This document shows, one piece after another, positions 3,583-48,675 of a DNA stretch of 64,000 nucleotides. Origin of the DNA: an uncultured Candidatus Saccharibacteria bacterium (GTDB lineage: Bacteria > Patescibacteriota > Minisyncoccia > Phycocordibacterales > Zambryskibacteraceae); contig CAZUDK010000001.1 of NCBI GenBank assembly GCA_964618905.1, positions 92,614 to 156,613 on the forward strand, in the 5' to 3' direction. The first letter of the stretch is position 1. Every line of letters starts with the position of its first letter. The notes below the pieces were generated by a model that worked only from the letters and a program-made list of their open reading frames with translations, was not told the DNA's origin and searched no databases. The position numbers and the translations under genes were made by a program.

Positions 3583-4348
3583 ATAGAAGGTTTAAATTAA
3601 ATACCAAGCTAAGCCACGCTCCGATTATGAGAAAAGGTCCAAATGGTATCTCGCTCTTCATTGTAAGCTTTTTTCTACCTAGAAGCATCCACACCAATAC
3701 AGTCAAAGTACCGATCCAAAAAGCCAGTACGACCGCAGAGAAAGCTTTTTCGGCCCCAAGAAGAATACCGATAGACAATGCCAACTTAGCATCCCCAAAA
3801 CCCATCGCCCTTCCTCTTGAGATGAGCCAAATAAAAGCAAAGAAAGAAAACAGCACAGGGCCAGCAAGAAGATCAACTAAAGAATAATGAATCAAAAAAG
3901 CCGGCAGACCAAGAGCCAGTATGATGCTCGCATAAACCAATCCGTCTGAAATGATCCGATGCTTTAGATCATATATAAAAATAACTATGTATATTGAAAA
4001 AACTGCTAAATATAAAAGAGTTGAAAGAGCAAAAGCCCAACTAAATTCCCTATAAATTGAAAGCTGGTGATTGAAGACAGATGCAAATACCAATCCGGTC
4101 AGTATCTCTATAGCAGGATACTGCCAAGACAGTCTTGATTTACAAGACCGGCATCTGGCTCCAAGAGCAAAGAAGCTCACAATAGGTACAAGCTCCCACC
4201 ACCTAAGCTGTTTGCTGCACGAGAAGCAATATGACCTTCCAGAGAATATGGACTTAGAACCCCACCTTAGGCCGACTACGTTAACGAAACTGCCAACAAT
4301 GGCGCCTAGGAGAAAAAGAGAGAAAGATGTGATTAAGATGCTGGACAC
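3563..4348 (-). CDS. pilD: prepilin peptidase (A24 family, PilD/PppA)
   Basis: Polytopic membrane protein; N-terminal CxxC...CxxC zinc motif (CFSC, CRSC); catalytic Asp motif GFGDAKL. Confidence 0.85.
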   Translation of the reverse strand: MSSILITSFSLFLLGAIVGSFVNVVGLRWGSKSIFSGRSYCFSCSKQLRWWELVPIVSFFALGARCRSCKSRLSWQYPAIEILTGLVFASVFNHQLSIYREFSWAFALSTLLYLAVFSIYIVIFIYDLKHRIISDGLVYASIILALGLPAFLIHYSLVDLLAGPVLFSFFAFIWLISRGRAMGFGDAKLALSIGILLGAEKAFSAVVLAFWIGTLTVLVWMLLGRKKLTMKSEIPFGPFLIIGAWLSLVFNLNLLYVSTFF

Positions 4349-4851
4349 ACAGTAGCGCCTGCGGCTGGTGCACTAGCAATCTTCCTTGAAGCACCGAGAG
4401 AATCCACACACCAGTATCCACCTACGAAAGGCAGAGCAGCATGGACTTGATAAGCTGTTGCGCTTGATACACAACCGATAGTTCCAACTCCTGCAGGATA
4501 ATTATCCTCATCAAGATACTGGTCTAAGCCGGATGCATCACCTGCGCTAACGCTGCACATGCTTGTGTATGAGTTTGGCGATTGGTTTGAATAGTAAATC
4601 TCTGCGGCACCTCGGAGTGAGGAGAGCTGAGCTTGAACCTTAGCATCGTTACCTTTACCTCTAGCTGAGTTAAGAGAAGCAAGGACAACTGAAGAGAGCA
4701 CACCGATAATAGCTACCACCACCAGAAGTTCTATAAGGGTGAAACCTGCCTGCAGGTGGGTAGAATTTTTTTCTCTGTTTTTTAACATAGTCATATTAAC
4801 TTTAATTGAGTTACCCTTTAAGTATACCTTAAAAGCCCGATGAGTTTGCAA
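4333..4851 (-). CDS. pilA: major type IV pilin (PilA-like)
   Basis: AGFTLIELLVVVAIIGVL canonical pilin N-terminus; C-terminal Cys pair (disulfide loop). The true start is probably an internal Met (MTML... or MLKNRE...), which would shorten the leader. Confidence 0.8.
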   Translation of the reverse strand: MQTHRAFKVYLKGNSIKVNMTMLKNREKNSTHLQAGFTLIELLVVVAIIGVLSSVVLASLNSARGKGNDAKVQAQLSSLRGAAEIYYSNQSPNSYTSMCSVSAGDASGLDQYLDEDNYPAGVGTIGCVSSATAYQVHAALPFVGGYWCVDSLGASRKIASAPAAGATVCPAS

Positions 4852-6037
4852 TGTTGTAAATGGGGATAAGAACAGAAGCTAGGAGGACACCTACACCAAG
4901 TCCCAAAGCCACGATCATCACAGGTTCAATAAGGCTGACCATGGTATCGACAGCATTAACGACTTCCCTTTGGTAGAAATGAGCCATGGTTTTTAAAATT
5001 TTGCCAACTTCTCCGGATTCCTCGCCCACGCGTATCATCTGGACAAGCACGCTTGGCACATCTTCATATTGAGACAAAGATTGTGAAAACGAGCTACCAC
5101 TCTTAACGGCTATAGCACTCTTCTCCAGCATGTCTTTATATACAATATTATCCACCACTGATGCGGTTATCTCTATAGCTCTTGCCATAGGGATACCCGA
5201 CAAAAGCATGGTGTTCATGTTGTCAGCTATCACTGACAAATAAAGCTTTTTGTATAGATCACCGACATAAGGCACTGTAAGTTTGAACCTTGCGAAAGCG
5301 ATCTTGCCTTCATCGGTGCGGATATACCTAATCAGAAGAACAACGGCAACTATGACTGCCGCAAGCAGGATTGCTCCGTAATCTACGAACAAATCGCTTA
5401 TGCTGAAGACAATTTTCGTATAAACAGGTATGGGCGCGTCTGATTCTTTAAGAATGACGCTTATTTTAGGCACAATAAAAGTGAACATCACTATCATCAC
5501 ACCAAAGAAAACCGTTATAACAAACGCAGGATATATAAGGGCATTCTTTGCTTTAGATATAACCTCATAGCTTCTATCCAAGTGATCCGCCAGATAATCA
5601 AAGGTTTCATTTAGTTTGCCCGATTCTTCTCCGGCCTTGACCATGTTTACATAAAATTCAGAGAAGATATCAGGATGCTTTGCCAAAGCCTTGGATATCG
5701 AACTCCCGCCCTGAAGGTCTTCAGTAACCTCCTGGAGGTTCTTGCGCAATACTTCATTCTCGACTTCGCCGGAGAGCAGGCTGAAGACCTTCAGGGCTGG
5801 AACCTCCGCTTCAAAGAGCGTGGCCATCTGCCTTGAGAGCATCACCACATCTTTATTCGACACTCCTGAACCGAATCTAATGCTAGTGAGCCAGGACTCT
5901 TTCTCTTGCGGTTCGATTTCTGAAATGATCAATCCTCTCTTCTGCAGAGCATTTATAGCCACGTCCATCGAAACCGCTTCGATAGAACCTTCCTTTCTGG
6001 CTCCTGAATTCTCTAAAGCTTTGTAGTTAAATAGCAT
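4829..6037 (-). CDS. pilC: type IV pilus inner-membrane platform protein PilC (GspF family)
   Basis: 402 aa, two T2SS_F repeats, three TM segments, conserved position next to pilin and ATPase genes. Confidence 0.85.
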   Translation of the reverse strand: MLFNYKALENSGARKEGSIEAVSMDVAINALQKRGLIISEIEPQEKESWLTSIRFGSGVSNKDVVMLSRQMATLFEAEVPALKVFSLLSGEVENEVLRKNLQEVTEDLQGGSSISKALAKHPDIFSEFYVNMVKAGEESGKLNETFDYLADHLDRSYEVISKAKNALIYPAFVITVFFGVMIVMFTFIVPKISVILKESDAPIPVYTKIVFSISDLFVDYGAILLAAVIVAVVLLIRYIRTDEGKIAFARFKLTVPYVGDLYKKLYLSVIADNMNTMLLSGIPMARAIEITASVVDNIVYKDMLEKSAIAVKSGSSFSQSLSQYEDVPSVLVQMIRVGEESGEVGKILKTMAHFYQREVVNAVDTMVSLIEPVMIVALGLGVGVLLASVLIPIYNIANSSGF

Positions 6038-13355: not shown

Positions 13356-13441
13356 GGAGACGTGGCTGAGTGGTCGAAAGCGCCTCACTGCTAACGAGGT
13401 AGGGTGTAAAAGCTCTCCAGGGTTCGAATCCCTGCGTCTCC
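13356..13441 (+). tRNA. tRNA-Ser (anticodon GCU)
   Basis: Hand-folded cloverleaf: acceptor GGAGACG/CGTCTCC, anticodon loop CUGCUAA, long variable arm, T-loop GGTTCGAATCC, discriminator G; CCA not encoded. Confidence 0.8.
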
Positions 13442-13467
13442 GCAACGATTTGCAAGAAAGACCTAAA
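13426..13467 (+). repeat. 42-bp direct repeat, copy 1 (3' 16 nt of tRNA-Ser plus downstream terminator hairpin)
   Basis: GAATCCCTGCGTCTCCGCAACGATTTGCAAGAAAGACCTAAA is identical to 13604..13645. Confidence 0.85.
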
Positions 13468-13603
13468 CGGTCTTTTGAGCAAAGCGTAGTAGAAGAGTGT
13501 AGCTGGGATTCGAAAGGCGGAGCCAGAGCAATGCGAAGCATTGCAGATTGGCGAGCCCGGGCAGGGGCCACTTATGAGCGAAGCGAATTAGTGAGCTGAC
13601 GCC

Positions 13604-13645
13604 GAATCCCTGCGTCTCCGCAACGATTTGCAAGAAAGACCTAAA
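13604..13645 (+). repeat. 42-bp direct repeat, copy 2 (orphan tRNA-Ser 3' fragment plus terminator hairpin)
   Basis: Exact copy of 13426..13467; not preceded by a complete tRNA. Confidence 0.85.
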
Positions 13646-13698
13646 AAGTCTTTCTGTCTCCGGCTTCGCCTTAGCTCTGCTATACTGACCTCATACAA

Positions 13699-15906
13699 AT
13701 GAGTCCGGAAACTAAGCTTAAAGATTTCTCACGTCTTAACCCTTTTCAAGAGAAAGCTCTTAAGAAGCTGGGTCTGGAAACTGTAGAAGACCTCCTATAT
13801 CACTTCCCTGCTCGCTACGCAGACACGGCGGATGTGAAGAATATTGCAGACTTAGAGAAAGGTGAGAAAGCAGTAGTCTTCGGCAAGCTCTCCAAATTAA
13901 AGACAGCAAAAGCATTTAGAAAAAAAATTCCACTATCCGAAGCATATCTTGAGGATGATACCGGCAAAATCAAGATAGTCTGGTTCTATCAAGCATACCT
14001 AGCCAAGATGCTCGAAGAAGGCTCGCATGTAAGAGTCGAAGGAAAAGTGAGCGAGAGGGCCGGCGAACTGTACTTCTCGAACCCAAAAGTCGAGAGCGCG
14101 CCGACTCTCTTCGCGCAAGGCAGATCAGACATTCTATATCCTGTGTATCCCGAGGCTCGAGGCATCAGCTCGGACTGGCTGTACCACAAAATAGAGCGCA
14201 TCCTCGCTGCTAAAGTTCTCGACGAGCTCGAAGATGTCATACCTCAGGAAATTTTAGAAAAATATTCTCTCCCCTCGCTGAAGTCTGCACTTATTTATAT
14301 ACACACTCCGCAGAAACTTTCGGATGCTGAAGCTGCCAGAAAAAGATTTGCCTTCCAAGAAATCTTTTTAATACAACTCGATAGACAAAGAGAGAAACAG
14401 GAATTCAGAAGAAAGGAAGCATTCATCATAGACAAGGACTCCACTGATATAAAAAATTTCATAGAGCGCTTCCCTTTCAAAGCGACCGGCGCGCAGAATA
14501 AAGCCATTGACCAAATACTGGCGGATTTTAAAAAAGGCTATCCTATGACACGACTGCTTGAAGGTGATGTTGGCTCGGGTAAAACTGCTGTTGCCGCTAC
14601 TGCTGCATACGCCGTAGCAACTTCTAGGCCCAAAGGCCAGGACTTCGGCACGCTTCAGGTTGCCTACATGGCGCCGACAGAAATTCTCGCCCAACAGCAT
14701 TTTGAATCTTTCATTAATTTATTCAGACACTTGCCGATAAACATTGCTCTTATCACAGGGACAGGAGTGCGCAAATTTCCTTCAAAGGTAAATCCTGGTA
14801 GCTGGACAAGCATTTCCAAGAGCCAGCTTCTAAAGTGGGTTGCCAATGGCGAAATTTCCATAGTGATAGGCACTCACGCCCTCATTCAAAAGAACGTGAA
14901 GTTCAAGCACCTGGCGTTTGCCATCATCGACGAACAGCACCGCTTCGGCACAAAGCAAAGGCAGAAGCTCGCAGGCGGGCCCGCCTCGACTCGCGAAGGC
15001 TCGCCGACGCGAGGCGGGGAAGAGAATATCCCTCATCTTCTCTCTATGACGGCAACGCCTATCCCCCGCACTTTGGCTCTCACTCTTTACGGCAATCTTG
15101 ATCTTACTCTTCTCGACCAGATGCCTGCCGGCCGCAAACAGATACAGACAGAGATAATCGCACCCGAGAAAAGAGAGCGGGCTTACGAGAAGATGCGGCA
15201 AGAGCTTGCGGCCGGCAGGCAAATGTATGTAATCTGCCCGCGCATTGACCCGCCTCGCCTTGATGAGCAAGGGCGAGTCGAGGCGGGCGAACCCGATCCA
15301 AGCAAAGAAACTTCCATCCAAGCCAAATCTGTTAAAGAAGAAGCAAAAAGGCTCAAAAAAGAAATCTTCCCCGAATATGAGATCGGTATTCTCCACTCCA
15401 AGATGAAACCTGCGGAAAAAGAGAGTATTATGACCGACTTCAAGAACGGCAAAATAGATATTCTTGTTTCTACATCGGTAGTTGAAGTGGGAGTAAACGT
15501 AGAGAACGCTTCACTGATCATCATCGAAGGCGCGGAACGCTTCGGCCTCGCTCAGCTTCATCAGCTTCGCGGCCGAGTCCTGCGAGGCTCTCACCAGCCA
15601 TACTGCTTTATTTTCTCAGAGGGCAAATCGCAGAAAACTTTAGACAGGCTGGAAGCAATTAAAACCGCTAAAAACGGATTCGAACTTGCCGAATTCGACC
15701 TCTTGCAGAGAGGTGCAGGAGAGTTGAGCGGCAGCAGGCAATGGGGTATTTCCGACCTCGGCATGGAAGCTATAAAAAATATAAAGATGGTCGAGGCCGC
15801 CCGCACTGAAGCGACTAAACTTATAGAAAAAGATCCGGAGCTTAAAAAGCATCTACTGTTAAAAGAGAAGCTGACTGAAAGCTCTTCCAAAATTCATTTT
15901 GAATAA
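13699..15906 (+). CDS. recG: ATP-dependent DNA helicase RecG
   Basis: 735 aa; N-terminal wedge domain; helicase motifs GDVGSGKT, DEQHRFG, TATPIPRT; carries two in-frame GC-rich palindromic insertions. Confidence 0.9.
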   Translation: MSPETKLKDFSRLNPFQEKALKKLGLETVEDLLYHFPARYADTADVKNIADLEKGEKAVVFGKLSKLKTAKAFRKKIPLSEAYLEDDTGKIKIVWFYQAYLAKMLEEGSHVRVEGKVSERAGELYFSNPKVESAPTLFAQGRSDILYPVYPEARGISSDWLYHKIERILAAKVLDELEDVIPQEILEKYSLPSLKSALIYIHTPQKLSDAEAARKRFAFQEIFLIQLDRQREKQEFRRKEAFIIDKDSTDIKNFIERFPFKATGAQNKAIDQILADFKKGYPMTRLLEGDVGSGKTAVAATAAYAVATSRPKGQDFGTLQVAYMAPTEILAQQHFESFINLFRHLPINIALITGTGVRKFPSKVNPGSWTSISKSQLLKWVANGEISIVIGTHALIQKNVKFKHLAFAIIDEQHRFGTKQRQKLAGGPASTREGSPTRGGEENIPHLLSMTATPIPRTLALTLYGNLDLTLLDQMPAGRKQIQTEIIAPEKRERAYEKMRQELAAGRQMYVICPRIDPPRLDEQGRVEAGEPDPSKETSIQAKSVKEEAKRLKKEIFPEYEIGILHSKMKPAEKESIMTDFKNGKIDILVSTSVVEVGVNVENASLIIIEGAERFGLAQLHQLRGRVLRGSHQPYCFIFSEGKSQKTLDRLEAIKTAKNGFELAEFDLLQRGAGELSGSRQWGISDLGMEAIKNIKMVEAARTEATKLIEKDPELKKHLLLKEKLTESSSKIHFE
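14980..15018. repeat. GC-rich palindromic element copy (CCCGCCTCG-N21-CGAGGCGGG), in-frame inside recG
   Basis: Perfect 9-bp inverted repeat flanking 21 nt; 39 bp = 13 codons (encodes ..PASTREGSPTRGG..), located between helicase motifs II and III. Confidence 0.8.
15249..15287. repeat. GC-rich palindromic element copy (CCCGCCTCG-N21-CGAGGCGGG), in-frame inside recG
   Basis: Same 9-bp inverted repeat and 21-nt spacer geometry as 14980..15018; local GC is far above the gene average. Confidence 0.8.
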
Positions 15907-23846: not shown

Positions 23847-24191
23847 ATGACAAGAGTAAAAAAGGGCGTTAATGCTCTAAAGACCAGAAGGAATATTCTC
23901 AAGCGTGTAAAAGGCTATAGGTATGGACGCGGCAGCAAAGAGAGGCAAGCTAATGAAGCCATAGTTCATGCAGGCACACATGCTTTTGCCCACAGAAGAG
24001 ACAAGAAAGGAGTATTCCGCAGACTATGGAATGTGCGAATGTCTTCACTACTTAAAGCAGAAGGCCTCTCCTACTCCAAGTTTATTTCTATGCTCAAGAA
24101 GAAAGACGTAGCTCTCGACAGGAAAATTCTAGCTGGCTTGGCTCAGAACAATCCGGAAACTTTCAAAAAAATCATAGAAGAGGTTAGATAA
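23847..24191 (+). CDS. rplT: 50S ribosomal protein L20
   Basis: MTRVKKGVNALKTRRNILKRVKGYRYGRG...SYSKFISMLKKKDVALDRKILA matches L20. Confidence 0.9.
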   Translation: MTRVKKGVNALKTRRNILKRVKGYRYGRGSKERQANEAIVHAGTHAFAHRRDKKGVFRRLWNVRMSSLLKAEGLSYSKFISMLKKKDVALDRKILAGLAQNNPETFKKIIEEVR

Positions 24192-24194
24192 ATC

Positions 24195-24286
24195 AAAAAA
24201 GCTTCTAAAAACCCTTGCGCAGCGCGTCGGCGCGAGCGGAGCGAATTTTCAGCAGAAAATTACGTGTGGTTTTTAGAAGCTTTTTT
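24195..24286 (+). repeat. structured 3'-UTR element A: extended-stem intrinsic terminator (19-bp perfect inverted arms) enclosing a conserved GC-rich core
   Basis: Arms AAAAAAGCTTCTAAAAACC / GGTTTTTAGAAGCTTTTTT. Core CCTTGCG...GAGCGGAGCG-AATTTTCAGCAGAAAATTAC, homologous to 38794..38911 (20-mer identical after reverse complement). Confidence 0.75.
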
Positions 24287-24295
24287 GCTTTTTAA

Positions 24296-35607: not shown

Positions 35608-35949
35608 CTATTTCTTAGAATCTGTTGATGCTTTAGCAGCTCTAGCAGCTGAAATCTCAGCTTCTTTCTTCTTCTGCTCAAGCTCTTTCTGCATCTTACC
35701 ACCGTGCTTTATGAATTTGCGGGTGGGAGAAAACTCGCCCAAACGGTGGCCAACCATATCTTCAGTAACAAAAACTTCTATATGATCCTTGCCATTGTGA
35801 ACACCAAAAGTAAATCCAAGCATTTCTGGAGAAATTTGGCATGCCCTCGACCATGTCTTAATAACTCCGGCTGTCTGCGGAGTTTTACTCTCGATTTTCT
35901 TTAAAATTCGAGGATCGACATATGGACCTTTTCTTGATGAACGAGTCAT
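35608..35949 (-). CDS. rpsS: 30S ribosomal protein S19
   Basis: [14 protein letters not shown]...[23 protein letters not shown]; Lys-rich C-terminal extension. Confidence 0.95.
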
Positions 35950-38191: not shown

Positions 38192-38749
38192 TCAAATACC
38201 TAATTTATTTAGTATCTTTTTATGAGAAAAATCGAGAATATCTCTTATAAGCTTGTCATATAAGCCAAGTCTGTATTTAAAATCATCAGTTTCAAAAGCT
38301 GCATATCGCAGTTCTTTGCCAAGCTCTGCTTCTATCGAAGATATGGCCGAAACTAAGGCTGTCTGCTTTATATTGTCTCCAGCTATGAGTAGATCTACCC
38401 TGCTCTCAAGGTCATGAATAAATACTCCGGCTATAACTACAAGTTTGATATTGCCGGCCTTGCTTAGCTTTTTTATGATTTCCTGCTCGCTTACAGGGGC
38501 AACGTCAATAAGAAAGCTCTCAAGAGCAGAAAGATTTGGGTAGGTGCTGTTTAGGGCATAACCCTTACTGGTCTTCCTTATAAGCTTGCCTTTGGATAGA
38601 GACCTGAGCTCTTTTCTGACTGTATTAGGGCGTTCCTTGGACCTTCTGGAAACTTCTTTTGGGCTGAAAGACTGACCTGGGTTGAATACAAAGAGACGGA
38701 TAATCCTGGCCTTGCTGTTCGTGCCGAATATATGGGAAGAAGATGGCAT
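38192..38749 (-). CDS. hypothetical protein with basic N-terminal wHTH-like region
   Basis: 185 aa ORF; no family assignable. Confidence 0.4.
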   Translation of the reverse strand: MPSSSHIFGTNSKARIIRLFVFNPGQSFSPKEVSRRSKERPNTVRKELRSLSKGKLIRKTSKGYALNSTYPNLSALESFLIDVAPVSEQEIIKKLSKAGNIKLVVIAGVFIHDLESRVDLLIAGDNIKQTALVSAISSIEAELGKELRYAAFETDDFKYRLGLYDKLIRDILDFSHKKILNKLGI

Positions 38750-38793
38750 GGGCGTATTCTATCTGGACAGGAGAGAAGTTACAACCCAGCTTT

Positions 38794-38911
38794 AAAACAA
38801 AGAAAAAACAACAATTTCCTGTGCATGCAGTAATTTTCTGCTGAAAATTCTGCTCTGCTCACCACGCCGGGCTCCGCAAGGCACCATAAATTGTTGTTTT
38901 TTCTTTGTTTT
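38794..38911 (-). repeat. structured 3'-UTR element B: 23-bp perfect inverted arms enclosing a conserved GC-rich core (homolog of 24195..24286)
   Basis: Arms AAAACAAAGAAAAAACAACAATT / AATTGTTGTTTTTTCTTTGTTTT. The core on the minus strand reads CCTTGCG...GAGCAGAGCAG-AATTTTCAGCAGAAAATTAC; it lies in the 3' UTR of rplJ-rplL. Confidence 0.75.
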
Positions 38912-39046
38912 ACTTGAAGGTAACTTTGTCACAGATAATTTCCTCGCCGTAGCTCGGAAATTTCCGCGACTCCGCCTCGCGCCCGACTACTGCTGTAGTC
39001 GGACTGAGTGCGCTCCGGCCGTAAGACCTACCTAAATAAGCTCCGC

Positions 39047-39526
39047 TTATTTAAAGGTGGCCTTACCTCCTGCTTCCTCAATCTTAGCCTTGAGTTCTTC
39101 AGCTTCTTCTTTCTTCACATCAGACTTAAGCATAGATGGAGCAGCATCAACCATATCCTTTGCCTCCTTCAATCCAAGTCCGAGAGCTTCCTTGACCACC
39201 TTGATAACGGCAATCTTGTTAGCACCTGCGTCAGAAAGCTCTATATTTACCGTAGAACCTCCTTCTTCAGCTTCACCGCCGGCAGCAGGACCTGCAACCG
39301 CTACAGCTGTAGCTGAAACGCCGAATTTGTTTTCGAAGACCTTAACTAGCTCGTTGAGATCAAGCACTGACATGTTCTCGATTTCTTCAACAATCTTCTT
39401 GAACTTCTCAGGGACTTCTACTTCTTTAGTCTCTTCTTTAACTTCTTCGCTAGCAGGCGCAGCCTGAGTTTCTTCTTTCACTTCCTCTGCCGGAGCCTGT
39501 GCTTCTGTATTTGTTTCTTCTGCCAT
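39047..39526 (-). CDS. rplL: 50S ribosomal protein L7/L12 with ~40-aa acidic N-terminal extension
   Basis: Dimerisation domain [30 protein letters not shown], Ala/Gly hinge, C-terminal domain [24 protein letters not shown]. Confidence 0.9.
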
Positions 39527-39547: not shown

Positions 39548-40036
39548 TTACGATCGTGATTTAGCAATTTCGCTGAGAGCGACCGCTGTTCTCTGTATCG
39601 GAGAATTAATGATGTTGACAAATTTGCCACGCAAAACGTCAAGGCTTGGAATGAGTGCAATTTCCTCAGCTTCTGGCTTGGCGATATACTTGCCTTCAAA
39701 GACTGCTCCGAGGATATTCACTCCTCCGGCAAATTTCTTTTGAAAGGCATGCACCTCGCGCAAAGATGCTACAGGATCTTCACTCCATGCGAGAGCTAGC
39801 TCTCCCTCGAGTAGCGGCTTTTCTCCGTCAAATTTCTCGGCATCAAGAACCCTGTTAACAAGGTTCTTCTTGGCAACTTTGTAGGAAACACTCTGCTCTT
39901 TAAGAGCTTTGCGCATTTCTGTAACATCGCCGACTGAAAGTCCTTTGAAATTGACGAAAGCGAGCGACTTGGCGCGCTTTAGAGCCTCTGTCAAATTTTC
40001 AACTATTTCCTCCTTTTTCTGTCTGGTAATAGCCAT
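39548..40036 (-). CDS. rplJ: 50S ribosomal protein L10
   Basis: MAITRQKKEEIVENLTEALKRAKSLAFVNFKGLSV. Confidence 0.9.
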   Translation of the reverse strand: MAITRQKKEEIVENLTEALKRAKSLAFVNFKGLSVGDVTEMRKALKEQSVSYKVAKKNLVNRVLDAEKFDGEKPLLEGELALAWSEDPVASLREVHAFQKKFAGGVNILGAVFEGKYIAKPEAEEIALIPSLDVLRGKFVNIINSPIQRTAVALSEIAKSRS

Positions 40037-45586: not shown

Positions 45587-47749
45587 TTATTTCCCTCCCG
45601 TCCTTGCTTCTATGATTTCCTGCTCAACATTCTTAGGCACCACAGCATAGTGGTCGAATTCCATTGTTGCCGAACCTCGGCCTTCTGTCATCGAACGCAG
45701 GTTTGTTACATATCCGAACATTTCCGACAGCGGCACGAATGCCCTAACAACCTTAAGATCTCCTCTCTCTTCCATGGCCTCTATCTGACCTCTCTTACTG
45801 GACAAGTTGCCTGTTACATCACCCATGAACTTATCAGGGACAACTACTTCCACTTTCATAATAGGCTCGAGGAGCACAGGTTTTGCCTTCTTGGCTGCTT
45901 CTTGGAATGCCTGGCTGGCAGCTATCTTGTATGCAATCTCAGACGAGTCCACATCGTGATAAGAACCAAAGAGAAGTTCCGCAGAAATGCCTGTCATCTT
46001 GTATCCGGCAAGCACACCTCTATCCATAGCTTCTTTGATACCCTTTTCTACTGCAGGGATAAACTCCTGAGGAATAACACCTCCTTTGATCGAATCAATG
46101 AACTCGAAACCTTCTTCTCGATGCACGTTCTTCGGCACCTTTTCATCTGGATCATAGTCAGGAAGAGGTTTGATCTTGATCTTAACGTGTCCGTACTGAC
46201 CCTTACCTCCTGTCTGCTTAATGTATTTATTCTCGACTTCTGCTTCGCCTTGGATGGTTTCTTTATATGATACCTGAGGCTTGCCAACATTGGCTTCAAC
46301 AGCGAATTCTCGCTTGAGTCTGTCAACGATAATCTCCAAGTGGAGCTCACCCATACCCATAATGACAGTCTCTCCGGTCTCTGAATCTGTTTTGATCTTA
46401 AATGTTGGGTCTTCATCTGAAAGACGCTTGAGAGCCATACCCATTTTCTCTTGGTCAGCCTTGGTCTTAGGCTCAATACGAAGCGAGATAACCGGCTCAG
46501 GGAATGTGATTTGGTCAAGAATTATAGGATGATTCTCATCACAGAAAGTATGCGAGGTCTTAGCATCCTTGAGACCAACCGCAGCTGCAATCTCTCCGGC
46601 AAAAACCTTCTTAACTTCTTCTCTCTTATCTGCCTGCAGACGCACGATTCTTCCGAGACGCTCTTTCTCATCAAGAGTTGAGTTGTATATATAGGTACCG
46701 GACTCTACAGTACCGGAATAAACACGGAAGAAAGTGAGCTGACCGACAAACGGGTCAGACTGCAATTTAAATGCAAGAGCTGAGAAAGGTTCGCTGTCTG
46801 AAGCATGTCTTTCTATCTCCTCGCCTGTCCTTGGGTCGATGCCTTTTACAGGAGGCACATCAAGAGGACTCGGCAAAAAGTCCACCACCGCGTCGAGAAC
46901 CAGCTGCACGCCCTTGTTCTTGAGGGCGGAACCGGCAAACACGGGGAAAACATTATTAGCTATAACCGCCTTTCTGAGCGTTGCTTTAAGGTCTTCATAG
47001 CCTATTTCCTTGCCGTCGAGGTACTGATTCATCAGAGCTTCATCGTTTTCAACGATCTTTTCCACCAATTCAGCGCGATATTTTTCAACATCCGCCTTCA
47101 TGTTCTCCGGAATCTCCTTTTCCACTATCTTGTCGCCCATAGGGCCTTCAAAGTAGTAAGCCTTCATGCGCAAAAGATGCACCAAACCTTCATGCTTGTC
47201 TTCTTCGCCGATTGGCAAGGTCATTCTGACTGCATTCTTGGACAGTCGGTTTAAAATGCTCTGGAAAGAGCGCTCAAAAGATGCTCCGGTCCTGTCTATC
47301 TTGTTTATGAAGCAGATTCTTGGAACATGAGCTTCTTCAGCATATCTCCAGTTGGTTTCCGACTGAGGCTCCACTCCGGCAACTCCGTCAAAGACCACCA
47401 TGGCGCCGTCGAGCACCCTAAGAGAGCGCTTAACCTCAACTGTAAAGTCTATGTGACCTGGAGTGTCGATAATATTGAAACGATATTTATTCTCTTTCTT
47501 CAGCCTCTCGCCTTCTGGAATGTTTGTGGGTCCCCAAAAACATGTTACAGCAGCGGCTGTGATAGTAATGCCGCGCTCTTTCTCCTGCTCCATCCAGTCG
47601 GTGGTAGCTTCACCTTCATGCACCTCACCGATCTTGTGCTGAGAACCGGTATAGTAAAGCACGCGTTCAGACGTGGTGGTTTTACCCGCATCCACGTGGG
47701 CGACAATTCCAAAGTTTCTAATTCTTTCTAACGGATAGTCTCTCTCCAT
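45587..47749 (-). CDS. fusA: elongation factor G
   Basis: AHVDAGKTTTSERVLYYTG...; 720 aa. Confidence 0.98.
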   Translation of the reverse strand: MERDYPLERIRNFGIVAHVDAGKTTTSERVLYYTGSQHKIGEVHEGEATTDWMEQEKERGITITAAAVTCFWGPTNIPEGERLKKENKYRFNIIDTPGHIDFTVEVKRSLRVLDGAMVVFDGVAGVEPQSETNWRYAEEAHVPRICFINKIDRTGASFERSFQSILNRLSKNAVRMTLPIGEEDKHEGLVHLLRMKAYYFEGPMGDKIVEKEIPENMKADVEKYRAELVEKIVENDEALMNQYLDGKEIGYEDLKATLRKAVIANNVFPVFAGSALKNKGVQLVLDAVVDFLPSPLDVPPVKGIDPRTGEEIERHASDSEPFSALAFKLQSDPFVGQLTFFRVYSGTVESGTYIYNSTLDEKERLGRIVRLQADKREEVKKVFAGEIAAAVGLKDAKTSHTFCDENHPIILDQITFPEPVISLRIEPKTKADQEKMGMALKRLSDEDPTFKIKTDSETGETVIMGMGELHLEIIVDRLKREFAVEANVGKPQVSYKETIQGEAEVENKYIKQTGGKGQYGHVKIKIKPLPDYDPDEKVPKNVHREEGFEFIDSIKGGVIPQEFIPAVEKGIKEAMDRGVLAGYKMTGISAELLFGSYHDVDSSEIAYKIAASQAFQEAAKKAKPVLLEPIMKVEVVVPDKFMGDVTGNLSSKRGQIEAMEERGDLKVVRAFVPLSEMFGYVTNLRSMTEGRGSATMEFDHYAVVPKNVEQEIIEARTGGK

Positions 47750-47905
47750 ATTTATAATTTTAAATAAAAATGAGCAGCAAAATTACTGCCAGATGGCATC
47801 ATAATACAGTAAAGCATAGAAAAAACAACAGCGCCCTAACCAGACACCACTTTCCCCTCTCGCACAACTTATATTTCCATTCTCAACCGTATACAATGTC
47901 GAGTC

Positions 47906-48475
47906 ATGAATCCTTTAATAAAAAATCATTTTAAGTTTTTACTTGTTTTTATTTTAATAATTACGTTTGCATTATTCCCTGTTCCTTTCAAATCTTCAGA
48001 CAAAGTAGCCGAAGCCGCCCAGACTGCTTCGCAGCCCATTTCATCCTATGATCCTCCGTTGTGGCTCTACATTCCTTCAATCAATCTCTCTTCATCTATA
48101 GAAGGCGTTGGCATAAACAATAAAGGCAACATGGATGTACCTTCCGGACGCACAAACAATGTTGGCTGGTACAAGTACGGGACGCTTCCTGGCGAAACTG
48201 GCACGGCAGTCCTCGATGCGCATAACACTGCAGCCTTTAAAAATCTTCACATGCTAAATCCAGGCAGCGACATATATGTAATCACCAAAGCCGGCAGAGT
48301 GCTGCACTTCACAGCTACCGAAACGAAGACATATCCGGTAGCCACCCTCTCCCGCTATACCCTCTTTGAAGATACGGATGCAAAGCAGATCAACCTCATA
48401 ACCTGCGCCGGCACCCTTCTCGGCAACGGCGAAGCCAGCCATCGCCTGATAGTGTCTGCACAACTGGCAGCATAA
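47906..48475 (+). CDS. sortase family transpeptidase
   Basis: N-terminal TM anchor; conserved His region (TAVLDAHN), TLxTC catalytic motif (INLITCAG), Arg downstream. Confidence 0.7.
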   Translation: MNPLIKNHFKFLLVFILIITFALFPVPFKSSDKVAEAAQTASQPISSYDPPLWLYIPSINLSSSIEGVGINNKGNMDVPSGRTNNVGWYKYGTLPGETGTAVLDAHNTAAFKNLHMLNPGSDIYVITKAGRVLHFTATETKTYPVATLSRYTLFEDTDAKQINLITCAGTLLGNGEASHRLIVSAQLAA

Positions 48476-48675
48476 AAATACAACTCAAAGGTTCAATTTC
48501 CTAAGAAGCTCAAGGCAGAAATGAGCACAGCGAGAAAGCTGTATAAAAAATGAATTACGAGGCTCTTTTGCCGATACTCGAGACGCAAGTGAATTTGCGA
48601 CTAAGCTGTATAAAAAATACTGCGCAGGAGCAAATGAGCGCAGCAACGAAGAGTATCGGCAAAAGAGACCGTAAT

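Follow-up and report, generated by a model that had tools for sequence, protein, structure and literature searches.

A long-stemmed hairpin element downstream of rplL belongs to an uncatalogued structured family of Patescibacteria and may be a non-autonomous insertion element

A long inverted repeat, element B, lies directly downstream of rplL in the 64,000-nt stretch of DNA analysed here (the window; contig CAZUDK010000001.1, positions 92,614 to 156,613, from an uncultured Candidatus Saccharibacteria bacterium). Is this repeat a regulatory part of the rplJL transcript, a structured RNA in its own right, or a piece of mobile DNA? The original prediction took B to be one of two copies of a conserved 3'-untranslated region (3'-UTR) element, the other being copy A. 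Patescibacteria, also known as candidate phyla radiation (CPR) bacteria, form a very large lineage whose genomes are tiny and whose members are mostly uncultured; to our knowledge almost nothing is known about their non-coding RNAs and mobile DNA. B belongs to an uncatalogued family, matched by no Rfam 15 family and no paper, of Patescibacteria of the Parcubacteria / Paceibacteria type. With confidence slightly better than even, we read the family as a non-autonomous insertion element that at rplJL has a local effect as a 3' hairpin.

Element B has a perfect 23-bp inverted repeat around a 72-nt core, as had been predicted. On the plus strand AAAACAAAGAAAAAACAACAATT occupies 38794-38816, an exact reverse complement of it occupies 38889-38911, and exactly 72 nt (38817-38888) separate the arms. 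Chance matches to the 23-mer arm are expected at 0.00 (100 dinucleotide shuffles), and the window holds no other match to it with up to 3 mismatches allowed. When mismatches are admitted, the repeat grows to 32 nt with 91% complementarity (38793-38824 / 38881-38912) and is the longest local inverted repeat in the window. The arms are AT-rich (~35% GC). Folded as RNA, element B reaches -53.5 kcal/mol (z = -6.9 against shuffles), and the 272-nt spacer from rplL to the next open reading frame (ORF) reaches -116 kcal/mol (z = -10). According to the ORF list and its Pfam labels, rplL (39047..39526) and rplJ (39548..40036) are on the minus strand, and the gene downstream of rplL is a 185-aa ORF on the same strand (38192..38749) with a weak match to HTH_20, a helix-turn-helix (HTH) family. 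B therefore does lie in the 3' region of rplJL, followed by an unrelated gene and not by rpoB.

Read on the minus strand, the core of B consists of CUUGC-GGA, a P2 hairpin (GCC/GGU), GA-GC-AGA, a P3 hairpin (GCAG, AAUUUUC AGCA GAAAAUU, a bulged A and CUGC) and AU. The inner hairpin, AATTTTCTGCTGAAAATT on the plus strand at 38832-38849, is complementary to AATTTTCAGCAGAAAATT at 24244-24261 (+) in copy A. Because these two words are complementary, the minus strand of B, which is the sense strand of rplL, reads like the plus strand of A, and the proposed co-orientation with rplJL is confirmed. Aligned in the sense direction, A and B have the common core CCTTGCGnAGCnCGnCGnnGnGAGCnGAGC(A)GAATTTTCAGCAGAAAATTAC, while their 23-24 bp arms have nothing in common. 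The claimed homology of A and B thus applies to the conserved structured core and not to the arms. Element A folds with z = -5.2 against shuffles. It fills the convergent spacer between rplT and a beta-CASP gene, beginning within the rplT stop codon and ending 4 nt short of the beta-CASP stop.

To find relatives of B, genome collections were scanned with one exact 18-mer, the P3 hairpin, and the resulting collection is ascertained through that word. At least 120 loci were found, nearly all in metagenome-assembled genomes (MAGs) of Patescibacteria. The hosts include Nomura-, Kaiser-, Adler-, Taylor-, Zambryski-, Nealson-, Colwell- and Uhrbacteria, Paceibacteria and Minisyncoccia; the few matches in other phyla are obvious chance. 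A covariance model, R1, recovered 122 copies in 99 sources. A second model, R2, describes the class 2 copies defined below and was built without any window sequence. R1 detects A and B in the window, and R2 adds two further copies, C and D, with scores whose E-values are rough. Gene calls in the related loci, designated here by L numbers, are simple longest-ORF calls.

No Rfam 15 family matched the element. The window yielded only tmRNA and two tRNAs, with local E-value scans of A and B giving nothing but chance-level hits that scored far below the gathering thresholds, and 18 related loci together with two array loci yielded only tRNA and rRNA. Literature searches on the sequence, on RNA motifs of Patescibacteria and on repeats brought up nothing relevant. 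Signal recognition particle (SRP) RNA, 6S RNA, Y RNA, tRNA-like RNA, riboswitches and ribozymes (hammerhead, twister, pistol, hatchet) were rejected since none matched in Rfam even at E <= 10, the junction is without their signatures, and the element is multi-copy and located at 3' ends. The antisense 18-mer was also considered as the variable arm of a class II tRNA and dismissed, as ARAGORN finds no tRNA at those loci. A phage origin was dismissed too: eight viral contigs hold the 18-mer, and 0/8 hold a full element.

The members of the family are ~70-130 nt long including the stem and have a common architecture. The outer stem, P1, is followed by a short Y-U-U linker, a 2-bp helix (xC / Gx'), a GNA//GA internal loop, P2, an AGA linker and P3. 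P2 is a 4-5 bp hairpin with a loop of the G-N-N-(N)-G type, and the linker to P3 is purine-rich. P3 has a lower stem of 3-9 bp, a bulged A, a 7-bp A/U stem and an AGCA tetraloop, after which G-U/A-G leads into the return strand of P1. As a whole the core forms a three-way junction whose conservation is read on one strand only. Class 1, which includes A and B, has a P1 of 12-31 bp (median ~18-19; perfect in 26/63) and a 3-bp lower P3. In class 2, P1 is 6-9 bp long and the lower P3, of 9 bp, contains two conserved G.U pairs; further variants present the same AGCA hairpin in other frames. Across 55 copies the arms are locus-specific, with only a weak inner UUUUG..CAAAA tendency in P1.

Base pairing in the core was examined in alignments. 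A MAFFT alignment of 27 copies, which was not fitted to a model, contains compensatory changes in 4/4 P2 pairs and 3/3 lower-P3 pairs. In alignment A4, composed of R1 copies, 24/24 modelled pairs have double changes and 91% of cells are paired, compared with 67% in shuffles and 35-60% with slid partners; these counts are inflated, as A4 was fitted to the model. Among the 21 copies that do not carry the exact 18-mer, the upper P3 stems covary fully (GAUUUUU/AAAAAUC, AAAUUCC/GGAAUUU, UGUUUCC/GGAAACG and others) and the loop is AGCA in 12/21 and AGNN in 16/21. AGCA is the P3 loop in 112/122 copies, with the variants AGUA, AGAA, AGCG and AGCU. Mismatches in P1 are of the G.U type 21 times and of the A.C type 6 times. 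This covariation and G.U bias point to a structure that forms in RNA or in single-stranded DNA of the AGCA strand.

G/A oppositions account for 32/75 of the P1 stem mismatches and are often tandem. CGAAG / GCGAAGC-type motifs with tandem G.A recur symmetrically in or just outside long P1 stems (e.g. L073, L066, L090, L094 and L026), which hints at a conserved non-canonical motif in P1. A kink-turn consists of a helix, a 3-nt bulge, tandem G.A / A.G pairs and a second helix. In the element a 3-nt GNA stands opposite a 2-nt GA with Watson-Crick P2 immediately after, and the 5+2 arrangement is absent.

A and B both follow ribosomal-protein genes, rplT and rplL respectively, in the sense direction. 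This is what a cis-regulatory 3'-UTR, an attenuator or an autoregulatory element of ribosomal-protein operons would look like. To examine the association, 80 metagenomic rplL loci of 42-79% identity were compared. No copy was found at 78/80 of them, and the exceptions are an antisense copy 557 nt away (L200) and a weak one (L178). None of ~70 other copies flanks an rplL or rplT homologue, and no position beside either gene is conserved in related genomes. Instead the family is flanked by ordinary and diverse housekeeping genes (146 Pfam families among 101 proteins), and no ribosomal leader in Rfam matched. Such a regulator is therefore highly improbable. Judged from these loci the element is not an rplL or ribosomal-operon feature, and of the proposed conserved 3'-UTR element there remains one that is real, conserved and structured and is not tied to ribosomal-protein operons.

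The same comparison suggests how B came to be downstream of rplL. The closest relatives keep the order of rplL and the HTH gene with no hairpin between them, in a spacer of 13 nt (L125, L128) or ~60 nt (L126). The spacer is 297 nt in the window, so C plus B amount to a gain of ~280 nt. At the site of copy A, the spacer in relative L206 measures 40 nt and contains only a weak, imperfect hairpin. In another relative, L205 (beta-CASP 74% identical), the same rplT / beta-CASP junction holds an IS200-like Y1_Tnp gene (213 aa, 3923-4630) flanked by GCATAGGCC-CGG-CCTATGC hairpins that are unrelated to the element core. Beside this gene there is also CAGGCCGACGGGCCGA, which is identical to a common P2 hairpin of the family.

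Two short-read contigs, of this organism or of related ones, end close to these sites. The Logan contig L121 stops 216 nt past rplL, in the rplL-HTH spacer occupied by C and B in the window, and the contig of L206 ends 213 nt after the beta-CASP gene, inside rplT. Repeated or structured DNA nearby may break short-read assemblies.

The short-stem copies carry further signatures of insertion. The CGACTAC..GTAGTCG hairpin predicted between B and the rplL stop is present. It belongs to element C, a second element of the same family identified by its R2 match, which rules out the idea that the "further GC-rich hairpins" noted here are accessory terminators. P2 of C bears an inserted AGCA-capped hairpin, CGACUAC-AGCA-GUAGUCG, and its P3 tip is a 12-nt loop. 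The word GCTTATTTA-GGT beside the first target repeat of C is an inverted copy of ACCTTTAAATAAG, and together they form the hairpin H0. Element D is bracketed by 51-nt direct repeats that are 96% identical, and its P1 is formed by GGGAUUCG (13507-13514) pairing with CGAAUCCC (13603-13610). Other tRNA-linked copies have direct repeats of 29 and 62 nt (L010), 25 (L072), 22 (L064), 17 (L053), 15 (L068) and 14 nt (L076), usually with the 3' arm of P1 as the beginning of the second repeat.

Targets that are not palindromic recur inverted in the 5' arm of the element, for example in L076 (GTCATAAAGC / GCTTTATGAC) and L070. The 5' arm therefore has two possible partners: pairing with the upstream repeat gives H0, and pairing with the downstream repeat gives P1. 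In short-stem copies the order is target, inverted target, core and target (T - T' - core - T). C fits the pattern of the tRNA copies because the end of rplL recurs at 10/13 positions and its inverted copy forms H0; by analogy we infer that the second repeat, ACCTTCAAGTAAA, is a putative target duplication of C. The TAA of this repeat is the first triplet of the 5' arm of B, and the 5' arm of A likewise starts inside the rplT stop codon. The bracketed DNA, ~100-180 nt, holds no ORF, and no recombinase is encoded within it. An annotation pipeline could miss the duplication in the tRNA-Ser region (13356-13653) or mis-call a tRNA fragment there, and duplicated gene ends in general could mislead annotation.

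Could both classes have inserted into the loops of hairpins that were already present, with P1 being the old stem? Long-stem copies would have entered terminator loops, and short-stem copies the T-loops of tRNAs. The outer arms do often resemble the bidirectional terminators of this genome (A-tract, stem, T-tract), as in AAAAAAGCTTCT..AGAAGCTTTTTT of copy A, and stop codons adjoin the stems on either side. A symmetric target would also lead one to expect random orientation, and P1 of D and of several other copies is the T-stem/T-loop sequence of the neighbouring tRNA. The relatives argue against old stems at the two sites that can be compared, since B's 13-60 nt site has no hairpin and A's 40-nt site in L206 has only the weak imperfect one. 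Furthermore, L076, L070 (target beyond the tRNA end) and C (rplL stop) carry inverted copies of targets that are not palindromic. We consider loop insertion unlikely.

The distribution of copies was examined as well. Orientation of class 1 copies relative to flanking genes is random: between co-directional genes 12 are sense and 20 antisense, 13 lie between convergent genes and 5 between divergent ones. Their stems often begin within ~10 nt of a stop codon, on either side, and the stem base is A-rich 5' and T-rich 3' in every context. Scans for -35/-10 and for -10 alone found no asymmetry between sense and antisense promoters upstream, and a dedicated sense-strand promoter was rejected. The 25 commonest Pfam families listed for the 101 proteins encoded next to copies include none of transposases, reverse transcriptases or integrases.

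Copies are also clustered, and 19/122 have a tRNA no more than 150 nt away. Each of the 19 shares the strand of its tRNA, and 14 are downstream of it. Several 8-kb loci hold 2-5 copies. The minus strand of L038 (4255-5496) has an array consisting of the 16S 3' end, a tRNA, an element, a tRNA and three elements. About five copies surround a tRNA in L067 (1165-2378), some of the units having two AGCA hairpins, and in L013 and L070 elements lie between tRNAs.

These observations are best explained by an insertion element because presence is sporadic, the window has gained sequence relative to its relatives, targets are duplicated, arms are locus-specific, orientation is random, copies cluster and no genes are linked to them. 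In the mechanism that we propose, P1 would be made from the local target, one arm being the pre-existing flank and the other its inverted copy, as the anatomy of the copies suggests. Short-stem copies would also duplicate the target directly, giving the order described above. The second arm of long-stem copies might arise by copying of the flank through fold-back or template switching, or by insertion into an older hairpin. Between rplL and the HTH gene there would have been two insertions. B would have come first, abutting the ancestral rplL stop codon, and C later, duplicating the last 13 nt of rplL. The strand specificity of the pairing rules suggests that the element takes the form of RNA or of single-stranded DNA. 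Its conserved cap would probably, if speculatively, be the recognition module for a conserved trans-acting factor that mobilises or processes the element.

Several points weigh against the insertion-element reading. Long-stem copies have no flank duplication above chance, and their longest shared flank words equal those of the random-pairing control. Because no target-site duplication exceeds chance, we infer the copying of an arm from the flank in these copies only from the locus specificity of their arms, the start of some arms in stop codons and the analogy with short-stem copies. For copies that entered a T-arm, what is taken for an inverted target in the 5' arm could instead be the T-stem copied directly. 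The collection's ascertainment through a single exact 18-mer and the inflated pair counts of A4 count here as well, and no mobilising enzyme was identified for the family. Some copies persist at one site across related species and show compensatory changes there (L081/L104, L027/L075, L095/L102/L105). In L200 (2521-2595) and L065 (2000-2064), whose MraZ proteins are 49% identical, an element lies antisense just upstream of mraZ. Same-site retention, including the latter pair, suits a function selected by the host at least as well as it suits a purely selfish element. Deep conservation, conserved unpaired bases and retained orthologous copies likewise fit a functional RNA. The element of L200 adjoins three GGGGATAAC-like repeats that resemble MraZ boxes.

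If selection by the host maintains the family, the core might be the mature part of a stable small RNA of Patescibacteria, either a ribonucleoprotein RNA or a regulatory one. Copies in tRNA and rRNA operons would be freed by tRNA-processing enzymes and long-P1 copies excised by RNase III in the manner of rRNA stalks, with the AGCA (AGNN-type) tetraloop and the bulged A as determinants for protein binding. The conserved unpaired nucleotides, three covarying helices and G.U bias are all expected of such an RNA. So are the arrays in stable-RNA operons (L038, L013, L070), the co-orientation of 19/19 tRNA-linked copies with their tRNA and the orthologous copies retained with compensatory P2 changes (e.g. 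L081/L104). The length of P1 also reaches that at which RNase III cuts, a well-established rule. On the other hand, long-stem copies lie antisense to their only neighbouring transcription units as often as they lie sense, no sense-specific -10 or -35 signal lies upstream, and presence is sporadic even among close relatives. The co-orientation with tRNAs can be explained without co-transcription because the direct repeats are repeats of tRNA 3' ends. A small RNA of this kind is a real but distinctly less probable explanation. The insertion-element and functional-RNA readings are, by analogy with REP and Correia elements, not mutually exclusive.

A further alternative places recognition in DNA. 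The element could be a double-stranded or cruciform protein site, such as a palindromic operator AATTTTC-N4-GAAAATT, or the single-stranded site of a Y1/HUH transposase of the IS200/IS605-like type or of the kind that pairs a repetitive extragenic palindrome (REP) with a REP-associated tyrosine transposase (RAYT). The 18-mer is near-palindromic, Y1_Tnp genes occur in related genomes and in one case in the rplT / beta-CASP junction of copy A, and G.T pairs are known to be tolerated in single-stranded-DNA hairpins. However, the half-sites covary rather than stay conserved, which indicates a hairpin and not a dimer operator. The hairpins at the L205 Y1_Tnp gene are unrelated to the core, and the Y1_Tnp genes of L205, L139 and L071 are not adjacent to elements. 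GC skew has one sign across the window, yet A and B are on opposite strands, so orientation does not follow replication direction and a replication-linked orientation was rejected. A DNA site of either sort is very unlikely.

We compared the family with known systems of short repeats. REPs and their bacterial interspersed mosaic elements (BIMEs), REPINs, and miniature transposable elements with inverted repeats (MITEs) such as the Correia elements of Neisseria and the ERIC and RU elements of enterobacteria are short, multi-copy, intergenic, non-coding hairpins found at gene 3' ends in both orientations. They are sporadic between relatives and can act as terminators or RNase III sites when transcribed. 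Such elements have been reviewed (PMC3184786, PMC2229807, PMC3116915). They have conserved arms and a variable centre; in the family of B it is the centre that is conserved, across a phylum, and the arms that differ from locus to locus. Between A and B no arm sequence is shared, and long-stem copies have no target duplication of fixed length, so neither hallmark of a MITE is present. The family also differs from REP-RAYT systems in having no GTAG/REP signature and no RAYT flanked by copies.

Integrative elements that target tRNA genes, namely tyrosine-recombinase islands and their gene-less derivatives, resemble the short-stem copies in their fixed orientation and in tRNA direct repeats that run from the T-loop or 3' end into the trailer. 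The short-stem insert differs from them in its size (~100-180 nt), in having no integrase and in the presence of an inverted target copy. Long-stem copies such as B differ further, as they are not at tRNAs and are not bracketed by direct repeats. Like the element, integron attC sites are imperfect hairpins recognised on one strand and found at gene 3' ends. In attC the stem base (R and L boxes, R''/L'' and L'/R') is conserved and the tip variable, and in the element the base is variable and the tip conserved. The flanks of the element are core housekeeping genes with random orientation, unlike those of attC.

The hallmark hairpin also recalls the signal of the yeast RNase III Rnt1p, an AGNN tetraloop closing a helix. 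The family hairpin has such a loop in the proportions given above, and in short-stem copies it sits on a helix of ~16 bp. The AGNN tetraloop rule for Rnt1p is reportedly due to Lebars and to Wu, both in 2001. Rnt1p is eukaryotic, and we know of no requirement of bacterial RNase III for AGNN. The resemblance is a lead only.

What would B do to the rplJL transcript? With the two insertions, this transcript would now end in ~270 nt of exceptionally stable structure, in which B's stem of 25-32 bp could be a barrier, a stop or a processing site that protects the rplJL 3' end. Most likely B stops or processes the transcript, an effect predicted from the modelled fold. Like rho-independent bidirectional terminators, the family hairpin lies directly after stop codons and often has an A-rich 5' and T-rich 3' base; B itself lies downstream of a stop codon with an A/T-rich stem base. 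Unlike terminators, the family stem is 12-31 bp long and AT-rich, and its "loop" is a conserved junction of 54-72 nt. Ordinary terminators in the window have 13-17 bp stems, a GC-rich centre and 2-4 nt loops. A consensus terminator scan reported nothing at B, although it accepts only loops of 3-8 nt. A terminator-like effect of the long modelled stem is plausible. Termination is not assured, because P1 of B is without the GC-rich stem of this genome's ordinary terminators, and this too counts against the proposed local effect.

The HTH gene downstream would then rely on a leaderless-type promoter of its own. A promoter-like site lies directly after B, and in relatives L125 and L128 (near 2893-2905) a TAAGAT -10-like box precedes the ATG of the orthologous HTH gene by the same 6 nt. 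Because of this position and the conserved spacing, the HTH gene is likely transcribed independently, and the position of the -10 box suggests a leaderless-type mRNA. The promoter of the HTH_20-like gene in the relatives would overlap the end of rplL.

On the wider scale, the family has well over 100 examples, an 18-nt hairpin identical across named candidate phyla, and arrays in rRNA and tRNA operons. If the core is a functional RNA, it would be a new phylum-wide RNA. If the family is a mobile element, the conserved centre, the arms derived from the target and the duplicated tRNA 3' ends would indicate an undescribed integration mechanism, and the family would be a source of new terminators and processing sites. 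We propose only tentatively, and with some doubt, a new class of mobile element in which nothing but a small core recognised as RNA or single-stranded DNA is conserved and in which integration copies the target flank in inverted form, and at tRNAs also directly. Were this correct, each copy would manufacture its own long hairpin, and terminator-like or RNase III-type hairpins would arise de novo across Patescibacterial genomes.

Table 1. Positions in the window of the family copies, their putative target repeats and the promoter-like site
Feature	Position	Strand	Description
Element B	38793..38912	-	Long outer stem P1 around a conserved three-way-junction core; from the inverted repeat and fold z
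Core of B	38817..38888	-	R1 57.9 bits, E ~9e-12; R2 38.3 bits
Upper P3 hairpin of B	38832..38849	-	7-bp A/U stem with AGCA tetraloop; family hallmark
Promoter-like site TTGTAA-17-TAGAAT	38756..38784	-	Ends 6 nt before the ATG of ORF 38192..38749; directly downstream of B
Element A	24190..24291	+	Inverted repeat 24190-24213 / 24268-24291; R1 80.5 bits on 24206-24275
Element C	38926..39024	-	R2 41.9 bits, E ~1.6e-8; divergent short-stem class 2 copy in tandem with B
Hairpin H0	39031..39055	-	Minimum-free-energy fold; rplL end including the stop, UUUAAAUAAGC, pairs with its own inverted copy GCUUAUUUAGG at the 5' edge of C
Putative target direct repeat 1 of C	39046..39058	-	ACCTTTAAATAAG, last rplL codons T F K and stop
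Putative target direct repeat 2 of C	38909..38921	-	ACCTTCAAGTAAA, 10/13 identical to repeat 1; again T F K stop
Element D	13476..13602	+	R2 22.9 bits on 13503-13608; degenerate short-stem copy after tRNA-Ser
Direct repeat 1 of D	13425..13475	+	Last 19 nt of tRNA-Ser (13356-13443), trailer and terminator hairpin
Direct repeat 2 of D	13603..13653	+	First 8 nt are the 3' arm of D P1

Part of B has a near match elsewhere in the window. At 47808-47830 (+), AGTAAAGCATAGAAAAAACAACA matches the 5' flank plus arm of B at 21/23 positions, where shuffles expect 0.00. The match sits in the divergent spacer between a fusA-like ORF (45587..47749, minus strand) and an ORF at 47906..48475 (+), and the 3' arm of B would be complementary to a plus-strand transcript across it. 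Despite this match, stem arms were rejected as guides, as the arms of 26 elements show no enrichment of matches over shuffled arms.

One additional R1 match, at 35807-35891 (-) inside the rpsS coding sequence, scores 17.9 bits and was judged spurious, probably due to chance. The window also contains other perfect or near-perfect inverted repeats of 16-21 nt, 56-71 nt apart, at 48563-48667, 15122-15221 and 5704-5801; they match the element in geometry, but their centres are unrelated to it. The repeat at 15122-15221 is nested in a region (14979-15288) with 40-nt GC-rich arms 230 nt apart.

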